Part shown: piece by piece, positions 21,224-26,372 of the stretch | Numbering within the stretch: position 1 is the stretch's first letter | How the letters are laid out: the number at the start of each line of letters is the position of its first letter | Origin: Acidimicrobiales bacterium | GTDB lineage: Bacteria > Actinomycetota > Acidimicrobiia > Acidimicrobiales > VFJN01 | DNA length: 64,000 bases | Direction of reading: 5' to 3' | Assembly (NCBI GenBank): GCA_035697145.1 | Contig: DASSDL010000080.1 | Span: forward strand, 31,562-95,561 | The notes under the pieces: generated by a model | What the model was told of the DNA's origin: nothing | Database searches by the model: none | Seen by the model: only the letters and a program-made list of their open reading frames with translations | Translations under genes and position numbers: made by a program

Positions 21224-21805
21224 GTGGCTCCTCCGCCGAGGTTCTACGAGCTGGACGATGCCAGCGTTCAGCTGCTCGCACATCCCTTGCGGTTACGGCT
21301 ACTGGCCCTCTTGCGGCTCGATGGAGCGTCCACCGCCACCAGGCTCGCGGAGCGCGTAGGTGAGTCGAGCGGTGTGACCAGCTATCACCTTCGCAAGCTG
21401 GCTGACGCCGGCTTTATCGAAGAGGACCCAGGCCGGGGCACCAAGCGCGACCGCTGGTGGAGGTCGGCGCACGAGGCCACGAAGGTCTCACACGCCGACT
21501 TCCTCGGTGACCCGGACGCGCATCGAGCAAGTGTGAGCGTGCGTCGGGAGATCAACCGCTGGCAGCAGCGGCTCGTCGAGCTGTGGCTGGCCGAGGAGGC
21601 CGACTGGGACAAGGCCTGGGTCGACGCCGCAGGATCCAGCGACTGGTTGCTGCGGCTCACCCCTGCCCAGACGAAGGCGCTGAACGAGGAGATCCTCGGC
21701 GTCGTCCGTCGTTACAACGACAACGAAGCACCCGAGGACGATCCCGATGCCGAGCGGGTCGTCTGGTTCCAGCACCTCATCCCTGTGAGCGAGCTGCCGT
21801 TCTGA
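21224..21805 (+). CDS. ArsR-like winged-helix transcriptional regulator
   Basis: LLAHPLRLRLLALLRLDGASTATRLAERVGESSGVTSYHLRKLADAGFIEE. Confidence 0.85.
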   Translation: MAPPPRFYELDDASVQLLAHPLRLRLLALLRLDGASTATRLAERVGESSGVTSYHLRKLADAGFIEEDPGRGTKRDRWWRSAHEATKVSHADFLGDPDAHRASVSVRREINRWQQRLVELWLAEEADWDKAWVDAAGSSDWLLRLTPAQTKALNEEILGVVRRYNDNEAPEDDPDAERVVWFQHLIPVSELPF

Positions 21806-23067
21806 TGCCGGTCGGCGCCACCGCGCTGCGCCGGCGTTACGTACTACTCACAGGATTGCGTTGGCTACCGGTCGGCTTCACAACCCCGCTGCTTGTCCTT
21901 CTGCAGCTGTCACGTGGCCTGACACTGGGGCAGGTCGGCATCACGATGGCCTGCTTCGGGGCCACCACGGCGTTGCTCGAGTTGCCGACGGGTGGCTTGG
22001 CCGACGCTGTCGGGCGCCGGCCGGTGCTAGTGGCGTCGTCGGTCCTGGGGATCGTCGTCTTCGGGTTGATGCTCGTGGCCGACGGTCTAGGGCTATGGAT
22101 CGCGATCAAGCTGTTGGCGGGCGCGGCGCGGGCGCTCGATTCGGGGCCGCTGGAGGCCTGGTATGTCGACGAAGTACGTCGTCTTGATCCAGGCGCCGAC
22201 ATCCGCCAGGGGTTGTCGCGAGGCCATGCGGTTGAAGGCGTGGGTCTTGGGTCCTCGGCCGTGGCCGGTGGCTTGCTGCCGGTTGCCTTCGGCGGCAGCT
22301 TCAACGCTGCGGTCGTCGCAGCCCTTGCGGCCCAGTGCCTTCATCTCGCCGGCTTGCTGGTCCTCATGACCGAGCACCGCACGTTCGACCGAGGGGCGCT
22401 GGCGAGAGCCACCCTTCAGGTACCGGCAGTCATCCGAGCCGGGCTAGCGGTCGGGATGGGACGGGGACCGGTCTCCTGGCTGCTGTGCGGCTCGGCGGTC
22501 TGGGGTGTGGCACTGGTTGGCATCGAGCTCCTGTGGCAGCCGCGCTTCACCGACCTTCTCGGCACCCGATCCGAGACCGGGCCCCTAGGGTTCCTCATGG
22601 CGGGTGCGTTTCTCGCGGCGGCGGCCGGTTCGGCCATGGCGCCACGCCTGGCCCTGCTCGTTGGCGGGGGTACCAGTCACAGCGCCATGGCGTGCACGCT
22701 GGCACAGGCGGCGGTCTACATGGCGTTGGCGGCCGCAGGGTCCTTCGCTATGGCGGCTCCTGCGTTCGTCATCGTGTACCTCCTGAACGGCGCCCGCGGC
22801 CCGTTCCACCATGAGCTGCTACACGAACACGTCGCTGCGGAGCAGCGCACCACGATGTTGTCAGCCGCATCACTGAGCCTGATGGCCGGCGGGTTGGTCA
22901 CCAGCCTGACTCTGCCCGCCCTCGAAGGGGTGGCAGGCATCCCGTGGACCTGGGCACTGGTGGCCGCAGTGCTCGCTACCTCGTCGCTGTTGTACCTGTG
23001 GATCCCCGATCGTCCGGCGCCAATCGCGCCATTCGAGCCCGAGCCAGAGCGAGTCGCGGTCGACTGA
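21805..23067 (+). CDS. MFS transporter
   Basis: In-frame ATG at 21805, overlapping the ArsR stop. Multiple TM helices and the motif-A-like GGLADAVGRRPVLV. Confidence 0.9.
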   Translation: MPVGATALRRRYVLLTGLRWLPVGFTTPLLVLLQLSRGLTLGQVGITMACFGATTALLELPTGGLADAVGRRPVLVASSVLGIVVFGLMLVADGLGLWIAIKLLAGAARALDSGPLEAWYVDEVRRLDPGADIRQGLSRGHAVEGVGLGSSAVAGGLLPVAFGGSFNAAVVAALAAQCLHLAGLLVLMTEHRTFDRGALARATLQVPAVIRAGLAVGMGRGPVSWLLCGSAVWGVALVGIELLWQPRFTDLLGTRSETGPLGFLMAGAFLAAAAGSAMAPRLALLVGGGTSHSAMACTLAQAAVYMALAAAGSFAMAAPAFVIVYLLNGARGPFHHELLHEHVAAEQRTTMLSAASLSLMAGGLVTSLTLPALEGVAGIPWTWALVAAVLATSSLLYLWIPDRPAPIAPFEPEPERVAVD

Positions 23068-23149: not shown

Positions 23150-23752
23150 TCAGGTGGCCGGCGCCAAGGCGTCCTTCGGCGCCAGCAGGTCCTGCAGCAC
23201 GGCCTGGACGGCAACGAGGGGTTCGGTCGACCGCTCGCCCTTGCCGATGACGATCGTGCCCTCGATCGCGGCGATGATCAGGGTCGCTAGGCCATGGGCC
23301 TCGGCGGCGGAGCGTCCCTCGGCCTCGAGGGCCTGGGCGAAGCGATCGATCCACCCCCGCAAGGCCCGTCCTGTGGCCGTGGCCAGGGCCTCGTGGGCGG
23401 CGGCCGCATCGAGCGCGACCGTGGCGACCGCGCACCCCTCCGCGAAGTCGGTGCGCTGCAAGTGCTCGATGTAGTCGTCGAAGAAGGTGGCGACGGCCTC
23501 GCCGACGGTGTCACCCTCCTCGAGCCCCTGCTCGAGTCGCCGCGTCGCGCGCTCGGCGAAGTAGTCGACGGCGGCGGCCGCCAGCTCCTCCTTGCCGCCC
23601 GGGAAGTGGAAGTACATCGAGCCCTTGGGCGCGTGCGCCTCGGCCATCACCTGGTTGAGCCCGGTCGCTCCGTAACCCTGCTTGCGCAGGAGCCGGCTGG
23701 TGGTGCGAACGAGACGGTCACGTGTGTCGGATGCCACAACACCAGCGTACAA
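23150..23752 (-). CDS. TetR/AcrR family transcriptional regulator
   Basis: TRDRLVRTTSRLLRKQGYGATGLNQVMAEAHAPKGSMYFHFPGGKEEL. The start is TTG at 23752 or GTG at 23737. Confidence 0.9.
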   Translation of the reverse strand: MYAGVVASDTRDRLVRTTSRLLRKQGYGATGLNQVMAEAHAPKGSMYFHFPGGKEELAAAAVDYFAERATRRLEQGLEEGDTVGEAVATFFDDYIEHLQRTDFAEGCAVATVALDAAAAHEALATATGRALRGWIDRFAQALEAEGRSAAEAHGLATLIIAAIEGTIVIGKGERSTEPLVAVQAVLQDLLAPKDALAPAT

Positions 23753-23759
23753 CTATTGC

Positions 23760-23790
23760 GACCGGTCTATTGACTATGACGACTGGTCTA
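23760..23790. promoter_or_regulatory. candidate TetR operator
   Basis: Two boxes, GACCGGTCTA (23760-23769) and GACTGGTCTA (23781-23790), spaced 21 bp apart. GACCGGTC is itself a perfect palindrome. They lie between the divergent TetR and GNAT starts. Confidence 0.4.
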
Positions 23791-23804
23791 GTTACGTTCG
23801 ATTC

Positions 23805-24314
23805 ATGCTGCTACGAGCATCGGAAGCCGGAGACCTGGAGCCCTTGCGGGCTTTCATCGCTCGCTGCTCTCCCGGGACCCTGTACCGGCGGTTCCACGGC
23901 ACCGGACCGCAGGCGATCGAGCGGGAGCTCACCCGAATCGCTTCGCCGGCAGACGACCACCGGTCGTGGGTCGTCGTCGACGGGGGCGAGGTGCGGGGCA
24001 CGGCCAGCCTGGCGCGCTCCCGTTCCGGCGCGACCGAGATGGCGCTGCTGGTGGAGGACCGGTGGTTCCGGCGGGGGATCGGGCGGGCGCTTGTCGGTGA
24101 GCTCATCACCCACGCGGAGCTCGCCCGGCTCGAGACGATCACGGCCTGGATCCAGGCCGACAACGAACGGGCCGTGCGCTTCATCCGGGCGGTGGCTCCC
24201 CAGGCGAGCATCCGCTTCGTCGGGGGTGCCGAGCTCGAGATGCTGATCCCTGTGGCTGCGGCGGTGGAATTGGGCCCGGCCCGCGCCGCGAACCCGACGC
24301 GGGAGGCGGCGTGA
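23805..24314 (+). CDS. GNAT acetyltransferase resembling the catalytic domain of Pat-type protein lysine acetyltransferases
   Basis: In-frame ATG at 23805. CSPGTLYRRFHG...ELTRI...DDHRSWVVVDGGEVRGTASLAR...TEMALLVEDRWFRRGIGRALVGELITHA...ITAWIQADNERAVRFI. Confidence 0.8.
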   Translation: MLLRASEAGDLEPLRAFIARCSPGTLYRRFHGTGPQAIERELTRIASPADDHRSWVVVDGGEVRGTASLARSRSGATEMALLVEDRWFRRGIGRALVGELITHAELARLETITAWIQADNERAVRFIRAVAPQASIRFVGGAELEMLIPVAAAVELGPARAANPTREAA

Positions 24315-24745
24315 GGGCCCGGCGCCGGCCGGACGTGGCGGTCCTGGCCGACGTACCCCCCTTCGACCGTTACGCGCGCAGCTCCCTGGCGCCGCTCATT
24401 CCCCACGCCGACCGGTTGCGGGTCGCCGACGGCACCGTCGTAGCACGCGAGGGCCATCGTGCCAGGCAGCTCGTCATCGTGGTGGCCGGCGTTCTGCTCG
24501 CCACCCGCGGCGGGCGTCCGGTCGGGGCATTGGGCCCGGGCACCTGGATCGGCGCCGAGGAACTGCTCGCCGACCGGGCTCACGACTGCACGCTGGTGGC
24601 GGGCGAGGGGTTGGAGGTGCTCGTGCTGAACGGGCCCGCCTACCGCTGGGCGGTCCAGACCTTGCCGGGGCTGGCCGACGTGCGGGTGCTAGACCTGCGG
24701 CGGGTCGAGGCGGCGCTCGAGCAGCAGGCTACGTTCACGGGGTGA
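24311..24745 (+). CDS. stand-alone cyclic-nucleotide-binding (CAP/Crp effector) domain protein
   Basis: LADVPPFDRYARSSLAPLIPHADRLRVADGTVVAREGHRARQLVIVVAGVLL...GPGTWIGAEELL. GTGA overlaps occur at both ends. Confidence 0.7.
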   Translation: MRARRRPDVAVLADVPPFDRYARSSLAPLIPHADRLRVADGTVVAREGHRARQLVIVVAGVLLATRGGRPVGALGPGTWIGAEELLADRAHDCTLVAGEGLEVLVLNGPAYRWAVQTLPGLADVRVLDLRRVEAALEQQATFTG

Positions 24746-25620
24746 CCGAACCAGCCGCCGCCCACGCGGGTACCTCCGAGACCGGGCCGTCACAGGCCGA
24801 CAAGGCCGCGCAGTTCCTCTCGCTGCACGACGGCCCGACCCCGCTGCTCATGCCTAACCCCTGGGACGCGGGGTCGGCCAAGCTGCTCGCCTGGCTCGGG
24901 TTCGAGGCCCTGGCGACCACCAGCAGCGGGTTCGCGGCCACCCTTGGGCGGCTGGACGGATCCGTCAGCCGCGAGGAGGCCCTTGCGCATGCGGCTTCGA
25001 TCGTCGCCGCCACCGACCGGCCCGTGTCGGCCGACCTCGAGAACTGCTTCGCCGACGAACCGGACGGCGTCGCCACGACCGTCCGTCTGGCGGTCGACGC
25101 GGGGCTGGCCGGGTGCTCTGTCGAGGACTTCAGCCAGCGGCCCGACGACCCGATCTACGACGCGGGGCTGGCCGCCGAGCGGGTGGCGGCTGCCACCGAG
25201 GCTGCCCATGCCGGCCCGGTCCACTTCGTGATCACTGCGCGCGCCGAGAACTACATCCGTGGCCGCCGGGACCTCGCCGACACCATCGCCCGGCTGCAGG
25301 CCTACCAGGAAGCGGGCGCCGACGTGCTGTTCGCGCCCGGGCTGAGCGACCTCGATGACGTACGCCAGGTGGTGGCGTCGGTCGACCGGCCGGTCAATGT
25401 GCTCCCCTGGCAGGGTGGCCCCACGGTGGCCCAGCTGGGCGAGGTCGGGGTTCGGCGCATCTCGGTGGGCGGAGCGTTCGCATTCGCCGCGCTGGGCAGT
25501 GTGGTCGACGCAGCCCGCGAACTACGCGAGCAGGGTACCTATGGGTTCCGCGAGCGCTCCCGCGTCGGGCTGACGGCGGTGAGGGACGCGTTCGCCGACA
25601 CCCAGAGGAGCGCACCATGA
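24742..25620 (+). CDS. isocitrate lyase / PEP mutase family protein (methylisocitrate-lyase-like)
   Basis: LLMPNPWDAGSAKLLAWLGFEALATTSSGFA...DLENCFADEP...GCSVEDF. Confidence 0.9.
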   Translation: MTEPAAAHAGTSETGPSQADKAAQFLSLHDGPTPLLMPNPWDAGSAKLLAWLGFEALATTSSGFAATLGRLDGSVSREEALAHAASIVAATDRPVSADLENCFADEPDGVATTVRLAVDAGLAGCSVEDFSQRPDDPIYDAGLAAERVAAATEAAHAGPVHFVITARAENYIRGRRDLADTIARLQAYQEAGADVLFAPGLSDLDDVRQVVASVDRPVNVLPWQGGPTVAQLGEVGVRRISVGGAFAFAALGSVVDAARELREQGTYGFRERSRVGLTAVRDAFADTQRSAP

Positions 25621-26372
25621 CCGGTGGCACGATCGCGACCGTGGCCATCATCGATGACCTGGAGGCCGAGCAGGAACGGCTCGAGGTGATCCTCGACGGG
25701 CTCGACGCGGCCGCCTGGCGATCGCCGTCGGCCGCCGCGGGTTGGAGCGTGGCCGACGTCGTCCTGCACCTGGCGCAGACCGAGGACGCGGTGGTCGTAT
25801 CGGTCGCCGGCGGTGACGGCTTCGAACGGCTGCGGGCGGGGTCGACGGGCGTCGACGACGCCGCGGAGCGGATGGTCCAGGCCGAGCGCGCCGAACCTGC
25901 GGTCGTGCTCCAGCGCTGGAAGGCGGGTCGCCGGGCGGCGCTGGCAGCGCTGCGCGCGGCCGATCCGCAGCAACCGATCCCGTGGGTGGCGACGCGCCTG
26001 AAGCCCGCCACGCTGGCAACGACACGCCTGGCCGAGCACTGGGCGCACGGGCTCGACATCACCGGCCCACTCGAGGTGTCGTTTCCCGACACCGAGCGGC
26101 TGCGCCACATCGCCTGGCTGGCGCACGGCACGCTGCCCTACGCCTTTGCGCTCGCCGGCCAGGAGGCCCACCCCGTGTATTGCGAACTGACCGGGCCGTC
26201 GGGCGAGACATGGCGCTACGGCCCGACGGGCGCCGACTCGACGATCACGGGCTCGGCCAGTGCGTTCTGCCGGGTCGGGGCGCAACGGCTGGCGCCCCAG
26301 GATTCGGGCCTCGTCGCCACGGGGCCCAACGGTGAGGCCGCGCTGCGGGTCCTGCGCACCTACGCCGGTTGA
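25617..26372 (+). CDS. DinB-like, mycothiol-dependent maleylpyruvate isomerase family metal-binding protein
   Basis: IIDDLEAEQERLEVILDGLDAAAWRSPSAAAGWSVADVVLHLAQTEDA. ATGA overlap with the upstream gene. Confidence 0.85.
   Translation: MTGGTIATVAIIDDLEAEQERLEVILDGLDAAAWRSPSAAAGWSVADVVLHLAQTEDAVVVSVAGGDGFERLRAGSTGVDDAAERMVQAERAEPAVVLQRWKAGRRAALAALRAADPQQPIPWVATRLKPATLATTRLAEHWAHGLDITGPLEVSFPDTERLRHIAWLAHGTLPYAFALAGQEAHPVYCELTGPSGETWRYGPTGADSTITGSASAFCRVGAQRLAPQDSGLVATGPNGEAALRVLRTYAG

Follow-up and report, generated by a model that had tools for sequence, protein, structure and literature searches.

What does a bacterium do with a single-domain GNAT acetyltransferase whose gene runs directly into that of a stand-alone cyclic-nucleotide-binding (CNB) fold protein? 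Such a pair lies at positions 23,805 to 24,745 of a 64,000-nucleotide stretch of DNA from an Acidimicrobiales bacterium (GCA_035697145.1, contig DASSDL010000080.1, positions 31,562 to 95,561; hereafter the window), and was originally predicted to be a mycobacterial-type protein acetyltransferase (Pat) divided between two genes and regulating two co-encoded enzymes. Our analysis favours a different reading, to which we give roughly an even chance, in which the locus would encode a TetR-controlled, two-subunit, ligand-gated lysine acetyltransferase (KAT) with a non-canonical CNB sensor. The genome assembly comprises 4.24 Mb in 253 contigs and is 97.5% complete; the group consists of uncultured soil actinobacteria, with homologues labelled 'Acidimicrobiales bacterium' or 'Actinomycetota bacterium'.

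The GNAT-CNB gene pair and the divergent TetR gene

The features at the core of the locus, with positions in the window, are as follows.

23150..23752, minus strand: TetR-family repressor gene with an LmrA/YxaF-type C-terminal domain (PF21993 7.8e-23, PF00440 1.3e-9)
23759..23798, unstranded: predicted bidirectional operator-promoter, read from the sequence as two 8-bp palindromes, a -35 and a -10
23805-24314, plus strand: GNAT gene, 169 aa from ATG; a longer TTG frame in the open reading frame (ORF) list starts at 23682
24301..24314, plus strand: coupling junction, with a GGGAGG Shine-Dalgarno sequence at 24301-24306, then a GTG overlapping TGA (GTGA, 24311-24314)
24311-24745, plus strand: CNB-fold gene, 144 aa, PF00027

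Gene neighbourhoods were surveyed in 40 related genomes and, separately, one genome per GTDB species was scanned with the GNAT-family profile (A1). The scan gave 42 loci, of which 26 hold an orthologue (profile score of about 190 or more, the two frame pieces of L061 being summed) as well as downstream sequence; one further locus ends inside the GNAT gene and lies outside the 26. In all 26, the CNB gene was found directly downstream of the orthologous GNAT gene, cut after 62 codons in one case. The same adjacency was seen among the 40 relatives in 10/10 genomes of the same genus (9/9 without the unpublished G008), as well as in three genomes of three other genera, and many further such pairs are present on metagenome contigs. 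The expectation that the pair is conserved outside this genome is therefore borne out across orthologous loci in the Acidimicrobiales. No CNB gene was found beside the 16 more distant GNATs (at most 39% identity) in the GTDB scan, nor in the scanned neighbourhoods of four solo Pat-like GNATs of the class, and the pairing is thus specific to the GNAT family of the window.

The junction of the two genes is conserved as well. In 22 of the 26 loci the CNB start and the GNAT stop share 4 nt, in three they share 1 nt, and in the remaining one, from an Iamiaceae metagenome-assembled genome (L056), a 38-nt gap lies between them. Across the loci, GGAGG sits 5-6 nt upstream of the CNB start, inside the REAA codons at the C terminus of the GNAT. 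The final Ala of the GNAT is invariant and the preceding Ala nearly so, a conservation of the tail that is explained by the EAA codons encoding the GGAGG of the CNB gene. These signals indicate that the GNAT and CNB genes are translationally coupled. Separately, the GNAT tail of L027 (G013:C51, 2234-3073) was found to be extended by a duplicated Ala/Gly-rich segment of ~30 aa; this GNAT still ends in GEAA, and the CNB start overlaps its stop. Four rhizosphere-metagenome runs labelled RNA-Seq, examined as contigs, gave low, even and fragmentary cover of all genes.

The conserved third partner of the pair is the divergent TetR gene, which the original prediction had passed over along with its operator. 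A TetR orthologue lies upstream of the GNAT gene in 25 of the 26 loci, the 26th reaching a contig end, and the intergenic gap is 52-67 bp. The protein carries a TetR_N helix-turn-helix (HTH) and a ligand domain, and its gene lies less than 200 bp from a divergent neighbour with a palindromic candidate operator. The true TetR start is likely to be the GTG at 23737, giving MASDTRDRL, because the orthologues begin MASDTRD. In L056 (3317-3878) the TetR orthologue matches in two overlapping pieces, possibly reflecting a frameshift or an assembly error.

The gap contains two palindromes, GACCGGTC (23760-23767) and GACTGGTC (23781-23788), which are 21 bp apart centre to centre and flank a -35 sequence TTGACT (23770-23775). 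A 17-nt spacer leads to a -10 sequence TACGTT (23793-23798), which ends 6 nt before the GNAT ATG at 23805, such that the GNAT mRNA is probably leaderless. In all 25 loci with an upstream region, a 33-nt intergenic core is identical at 28-33 of 33 positions, and the flanking proteins, at ~50-70% identity, are far less conserved; by our own reading of the aligned rows, the -10 retains TAnnnT in 24 of the 25. This arrangement is consistent with a pair of TetR operators that share one face of the helix, enclose the -35 and occupy the promoter spacer, with TetR predicted to bind the palindromes and the promoter assigned from its sequence. The dual operator site occurs once in the 4.24-Mb genome, at the window locus only, and a wider TetR regulon was accordingly discarded as a candidate. 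One extra operator half-site, GACTGGTCTA, was noted at G000:C65:1057 and could mark a second TetR target.

Placement and origin of the GNAT

To which acetyltransferases is the GNAT related? The protein matches PF00583 (4.9e-11, 43.4 bits against a Pfam cut-off of 20.7), and its best NCBIfam match is NF058543, mycobacterial Pat (6.8e-11, 41.6 bits against a cut-off of 460, model positions 140-267). A single-sequence search of the PDB returned seven distinct sequences at E <= 0.01, the top four of which are Rv0998 and three M. smegmatis Pat forms (2.4e-6 to 2.8e-5). The HMMER alignment with M. tuberculosis Rv0998 (4ava) spans TLYRRF, DH..WVV.DG and E.A..V.D...RGIG, in agreement with the Pat-like catalytic motif that had been noticed in the sequence. 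With a 36-sequence family profile, the nine best PDB chains were all protein acetyltransferases (1e-11 to 6e-8), namely the GNAT of S. lividans PatA, Sulfolobus Pat, MsPat, MtPat and the 877-886-aa 9it0/9isq (named E. coli PatZ), while phosphinothricin- and aminoglycoside-type acetyltransferases ranked below, at 2e-5 or worse. The AlphaFold2 (AF2) model, with a mean confidence (pLDDT) of 89.8, shows the mixed order of sheet and helix seen in GNATs and at least 500 PDB GNAT matches; its eight best Foldseek matches are the same protein acetyltransferases, with Rv0998 first at 28% identity.

The residues expected of such an enzyme are largely retained. Glu78 aligns, by our own count in the 4ava alignment, with Glu235 of Rv0998, which we take to be the catalytic general base, and the position is occupied by Glu in 31, Asp in 2 and His in 3 of the 36 family members. 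The acetyl-CoA loop RGIGRA (residues 90-95), which fits the pattern R/Q-x-x-G-x-G/A, has G91, G93 and R94 invariant across the 36, and in the TLYRRF helix, common to the family and Rv0998, Y27 is found in 35/36 and R28, R29 and F30 are invariant. By sequence and fold, the GNAT belongs to the Pat clade, away from small-molecule acetyltransferases, and by analogy it is likely to be a protein N-epsilon-lysine acetyltransferase. The original prediction had considered that the GNAT might instead cluster with small-molecule enzymes; its best sequence and fold matches are protein acetyltransferases.

These data bear most directly on the main rival explanation, a TetR-controlled acetyltransferase of small molecules. 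Here TetR would be induced by the substrate itself, be it a xenobiotic, an antibiotic or a metabolite; the CNB protein would bind or deliver this compound or be unrelated, and no protein acetylation would take place. Phosphinothricin-, spermidine- and arsinothricin-acetyltransferases are indeed among the weaker GNAT matches, the non-canonical pocket of the CNB protein could accommodate such a small compound, and the window's genus adds DinB/mycothiol-type and PEP-mutase-family enzymes to the locus, with a VOC/glyoxalase gene beside them, all typical of small-molecule chemistry. We consider this explanation unlikely, given that small-molecule enzymes rank below protein acetyltransferases in all of the best sequence and fold matches, that the TLYRRF helix of Rv0998 is retained in the GNAT family and that the extra enzymes are missing from 17 of the 26 loci.

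Two small overlapping genes, one encoding a GNAT of ~170 aa, might also suggest a toxin and its protein antitoxin (type II, TacT/AtaT-like), with the CNB protein as the neutraliser. This seems far-fetched to us. Entries bearing the name of a GNAT toxin (TacT, AtaT, ItaT or KacT) were found neither among the 29 PDB sequences with E <= 0.01 nor among the Foldseek matches listed to rank 50. The partner has a CNB fold without a DNA-binding antitoxin domain, and no PADLOC family was matched. Unlike mobile toxin-antitoxin pairs, the locus retains its synteny and its dedicated TetR gene across genera, a vertical pattern of conservation.

Is the pair then a Pat that came apart? Fused cNMP-GNAT proteins were detected in 8 of 201 sampled genomes of the class, spanning model positions ~1-15 to 294-316 of NF058543. 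The genome of the window has five NF058543 matches, none of which is above the cut-off or spans both halves, and fused Pat is thus absent from it; one of the five is the GNAT domain of a 959-codon open frame on contig C46, which is probably a large multidomain Pat. A tree was built from 32 GNAT domains, comprising nine of the 36 family rows, six fused, four solo Pat-like, four ACT-GNAT and eight distant domains as well as the large Pat. In this tree the GNAT family forms a single clade (100/99) whose sister group is the ACT-GNAT enzymes (92/83), and a 99/98 split sets it apart from the clade containing the fused cNMP-GNAT proteins and the large Pat. Consistent with this, the family profile gave ACT-GNAT proteins 64-96 bits versus 36-49 bits for the fused proteins, and the nearest longer relatives of the GNAT are ACT-GNAT proteins, at 34-39% identity.

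The CNB protein likewise has its closest kin elsewhere. An exhaustive search found 1403 proteins at E <= 0.001, of which the best 22 were all stand-alone proteins of at most 170 aa; the first longer match was a tandem-CNB protein. The CNB-family profile gave the CNB halves of the fused proteins 15-34 bits, whereas the CNB protein matched stand-alone cNMP proteins at 60-192 bits. The tree (99/98) and the profile scores lead us to reject the fission of a fused Pat and, together with the stand-alone relatives of the CNB protein, argue that a Pat-clade GNAT independently acquired a stand-alone CNB partner.

That a mycobacterial-type Pat has here been divided between two genes, remains gated by cAMP and acetylates the PEP-mutase-family and DinB enzymes is therefore, in our view, highly improbable. 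NF058543 is the best NCBIfam match of both the GNAT and the CNB protein, at scores of only 41.6 and 18.7 bits against the cut-off of 460, and the two ORFs stand in reverse order relative to this equivalog, the type III (class I-beta) KAT. cAMP is probably made in this genome, which has 14 class III cyclase domains, and one orthologue, in G012, carries Pro-Arg-Thr in its cassette. The cassette Arg is nevertheless His in 25 of 26 orthologues, both supposed target enzymes are missing from 17 of 26 loci, and the tree separation, the 15-34 bits between the CNB family and the fused CNB domains and the stand-alone CNB kin all count against this reading. Of the original prediction, then, the Pat type of the GNAT, the conserved pair and (as described below) the non-canonical pocket stand, while the split Pat, given the sister relationship with ACT-GNAT, is not supported, and neither are the co-encoded targets.

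The pocket and lysine content of the CNB protein

The CNB protein matches PF00027 (3.9e-8, 33.6 bits against a Pfam cut-off of 27.5) and is without an output domain; its NF058543 match, of 18.7 bits, covers model positions 4-113. The model (pLDDT 84.1) has a helix at 23-32, strands across 33-107, a cassette helix at 82-87 and a further helix at 108-117, and its top Foldseek matches are the CNB domains of PKA-R, MloK1 and PKG, with Rv0998 at rank 33. The protein thus has a CNB fold.

In a cassette competent for cAMP or cGMP, which follows the pattern G-E-x-x-x-...-R-[ST/A]-A, Glu at +1 from the Gly binds the ribose and Arg at +10 clamps the cyclic phosphate. The phosphate-binding cassette of the CNB protein reads G81-A-E-E-L-L-A-D-R-A-H91-D-C-T94, with canonical spacing from Gly81 to +10, and a HMMER alignment with CNB-B of PKG I pairs His91 with the cassette Arg and Ala82 with the Glu. 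Neither canonical residue is thus present. The replacements extend through the family: of the 26 orthologues, 21 have Ala, four Gly and one Thr at +1, and 25 have His and one Ser at +10, while the residue at +11 is Asp, Gly, Glu, Ala or Pro, mostly one of the first three. Glu84 is kept in 24 and Thr94 in 25 of the orthologues, while Arg89, two residues before His91, is kept in just 9. The Pro-Arg-Thr of the G012 orthologue, which lies outside the 26, follows a 2-residue insertion. The atypical cassette that had been noted in the single sequence is therefore a feature of the family. Because Arg is replaced by His and Glu by Ala or Gly, with an acidic residue beside the His, canonical binding of cAMP or cGMP appears unlikely. 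At the same time, the replaced positions are strongly conserved, which suggests that the pocket has been rebuilt and is under selection rather than decaying.

The same observations can be read in another way, with the CNB protein a pseudo-receptor that binds no ligand and serves as a fixed structural or substrate-recruiting subunit, all regulation being transcriptional through TetR. The two nucleotide-holding residues are substituted throughout the family, with an acidic residue beside the His; among the seven CNB domains of the genome, this one has the lowest PF00027 score (34.5 versus 36.7-84 bits); and the coupling signals imply a fixed stoichiometry. The conservation at the rebuilt positions (His 25/26, Glu84 24/26, Thr94 25/26) points to selection and not to decay, however, and the model is highly confident over the cassette helix and the barrel, so that we regard a ligandless subunit as distinctly unlikely. 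A reading in terms of defence, for example as a Pycsar-like CNB effector, was also considered and rejected: none of the four proteins of the operon has a PADLOC match, and a PycTIR match was marginal (E 0.08). We also noted that several of the 14 class III nucleotidyl-cyclase domain matches in the genome fall in open frames of more than 1000 codons.

Both proteins are devoid of lysine (0/169 residues in the GNAT and 0/144 in the CNB protein). Lysine makes up 0.11% of the GNAT family and 0.15% of the CNB family, compared with 1.5% in proxy genes of the genome. This scarcity would fit proteins that escape self-acetylation, and hints at rather than establishes such a role. The CNB protein was also considered as an acetylation substrate; without lysine, and in a family almost without lysine, it is excluded as an N-epsilon target here.

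A candidate two-subunit acetyltransferase, its precedents and its neighbours

How might the three proteins work together? In the reading we favour, TetR would release the two palindromes on binding some ligand, and coupled translation would then yield the GNAT and the CNB protein together. The CNB protein would be a sensor subunit, detachable from the acetyltransferase and gating it in trans, the counterpart of the cAMP, ACT or NADP domains that are fused to type III bacterial KATs and act in cis. The GNAT would acetylate lysines of target proteins, with an AMP-forming acyl-CoA synthetase as the first candidate by analogy with every characterised relative, and the signal sensed by the CNB protein would probably be other than canonically bound cAMP or cGMP. 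The control by TetR, the association of the two proteins, the direction of regulation, the ligand and the substrates are what we infer from the locus. A bolder form of this proposal, possible but rather doubtful, is that the locus represents an undescribed KAT class, defined by a separate, co-translated CNB sensor with a clamp rebuilt around His, a signal that is not cAMP or cGMP and a TetR switch shared with a radical SAM gene (see below); the signal would in that case be another nucleotide, a metabolite, a metal or pH.

Several points weigh against the two-subunit KAT. The Pat-clade position implies a protein substrate solely by analogy, with several of the tree neighbours uncharacterised, and in five of the 36 family members the putative general base Glu78 gives way to His (3) or Asp (2). 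A divergent TetR gene with a tight operator is the classic layout of detoxification and efflux genes, as the small-molecule explanation would have it. Lysine is also lacking from 15% of the proxy genes of 120-200 aa in the genome. The physical association of the GNAT and CNB protein is inferred: complex prediction gave a score of 0.00 in two runs, which weighs neither for nor against binding, and no fused GNAT-CNB form of the family was found among 87 matches of near length (the longest 231 aa) or 5 longer ones, thus giving no Rosetta-stone support, although the 8000 candidates scored make this weak evidence. Finally, two genomes of a sister genus carry close CNB paralogues (41-53% identity) with no GNAT gene beside them, so that membership of the CNB family does not in itself imply a GNAT partner.

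These GNAT-less paralogues are found at L029, L030, L032 and L033 (in G018 and G023). The paralogue at L030 is divergent from an extracytoplasmic-function (ECF) sigma factor gene, and that at L029 adjoins an ORF with a weak match to a homogentisate dioxygenase N-terminal domain. A further CNB paralogue, 60% identical to that of the window, lies just 3´ of the DinB gene at L031 (G002:C454, 41-433, minus strand), such that this same-genus operon carries two CNB genes.

Ligand-regulated (type III) KATs bear a fused N-terminal cAMP, ACT or NADP domain, whereas type IV KATs are single GNAT domains, according to the available part of PMC6456759. By architecture, as one GNAT domain of ~170 aa, the GNAT of the window fits type IV (class II); by descent it is sister to type III ACT-GNAT enzymes. 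It differs from type IV in its invariably coupled partner gene, a CNB partner in trans being absent from the part of PMC6456759 available. The ACT-GNAT amino-acid-sensing enzymes (AAPatA; PMC6434083 and PMC6456759, each in part) are its closest GNAT relatives and are likewise of Pat type with a sensor for a small ligand. Their sensor is an ACT domain fused N-terminally, while the GNAT of the window is unfused and a CNB-fold protein is encoded downstream.

Mycobacterial Pat (Rv0998/MSMEG_5458, NF058543, type III class I-beta KAT) combines the same two folds, a CNB domain and a Pat-clade GNAT. Rv0998 is the best single-sequence PDB and Foldseek match of the GNAT, with the TLYRRF helix, the position of the catalytic Glu and the acetyl-CoA loop in common. 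In contrast to the window, with two genes and the GNAT first, mycobacterial Pat is one chain with the CNB domain N-terminal; moreover, the GNAT of the window lies in a different clade, its CNB partner is not specifically related and the cassette Arg and Glu are absent.

The closest parallel to a separately encoded sensor is acuABC of Bacillus, with AcuA a GNAT, AcuB a CBS and ACT protein and AcuC a deacetylase (PMC13121692, PMC13039410). It is the sole described case we found of a stand-alone ligand sensor encoded beside a single-domain lysine acetyltransferase. According to these sources, AcuB has adenine nucleotides or Ap4A as ligands, and the enzyme it inhibits is the deacetylase AcuC rather than the acetyltransferase. 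The fold of AcuB is CBS/ACT rather than CNB, and the module of the window is without a deacetylase gene. A literature search, which did not extend to subscription journals, turned up no paper on a GNAT whose CNB partner is encoded by a gene of its own.

In the part of PMC6456759 available, ligand control of bacterial KATs is described solely through domains fused to the GNAT (for cAMP, amino acids and NADP). If our reading is true, a separate, translationally coupled sensor subunit would be a new KAT architecture, and output-less CNB-fold proteins, which are very common, could act as regulators of enzymes in trans. The rebuilt pocket would be a defined place in which to seek a new ligand of the CNB fold. 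With three proteins and a 36-bp operator, the module is compact and well delimited and can easily be tested with synthetic genes despite the uncultured hosts.

Outside the core, the following features adjoin the pair in the window.

24742-25620, plus strand: isocitrate lyase (ICL)/phosphoenolpyruvate (PEP)-mutase superfamily gene, 292 aa, PF13714 1.4e-75
25617-26372, plus strand: DinB/MDMPI-type gene, TIGR03084 metal-binding (mycothiol-dependent enzyme family), 251 aa
19451..21040, minus strand: Rv2578c-type radical SAM gene, intein-bearing here, 76-78% identity to the G022 gene
21224-21805, plus strand: ArsR-type regulator gene, ArsR-type HTH (Pfam)
21583-23067, plus strand: ORF of an MFS transporter (Pfam)

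The four plus-strand genes from the GNAT to the DinB-type gene lie exactly where the original prediction had placed them, with the ORF list and the junction sequences in agreement on the overlaps GTGA (24311-24314), GTGA (24742-24745) and ATGA (25617-25620). The PEP-mutase-family protein scored far under every NCBIfam equivalog cut-off, while the DinB-type protein matches PF11716 MDMPI_N/DinB (3.7e-23, Pfam) and TIGR03084 (4.2e-59, NCBIfam); a convergent VOC/glyoxalase gene (Pfam) lies downstream of the four-gene operon. The PEP-mutase-family, DinB-type and VOC genes accompany the pair in only 9 of the 26 loci, all from the same genus as the window. The PEP-mutase-family and DinB genes are thus later, genus-specific additions outside the conserved core, and the earlier proposal that the acetyltransferase regulates these co-encoded enzymes is not supported.

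On the TetR side, an Rv2578c-type radical SAM gene is present in 23 of the 26 loci. In relatives the radical SAM gene follows the TetR gene directly, as in G022, whose orthologue is without the roughly 160-aa intein, while in the genome of the window the ArsR and MFS pair is inserted between the radical SAM gene and the TetR gene.

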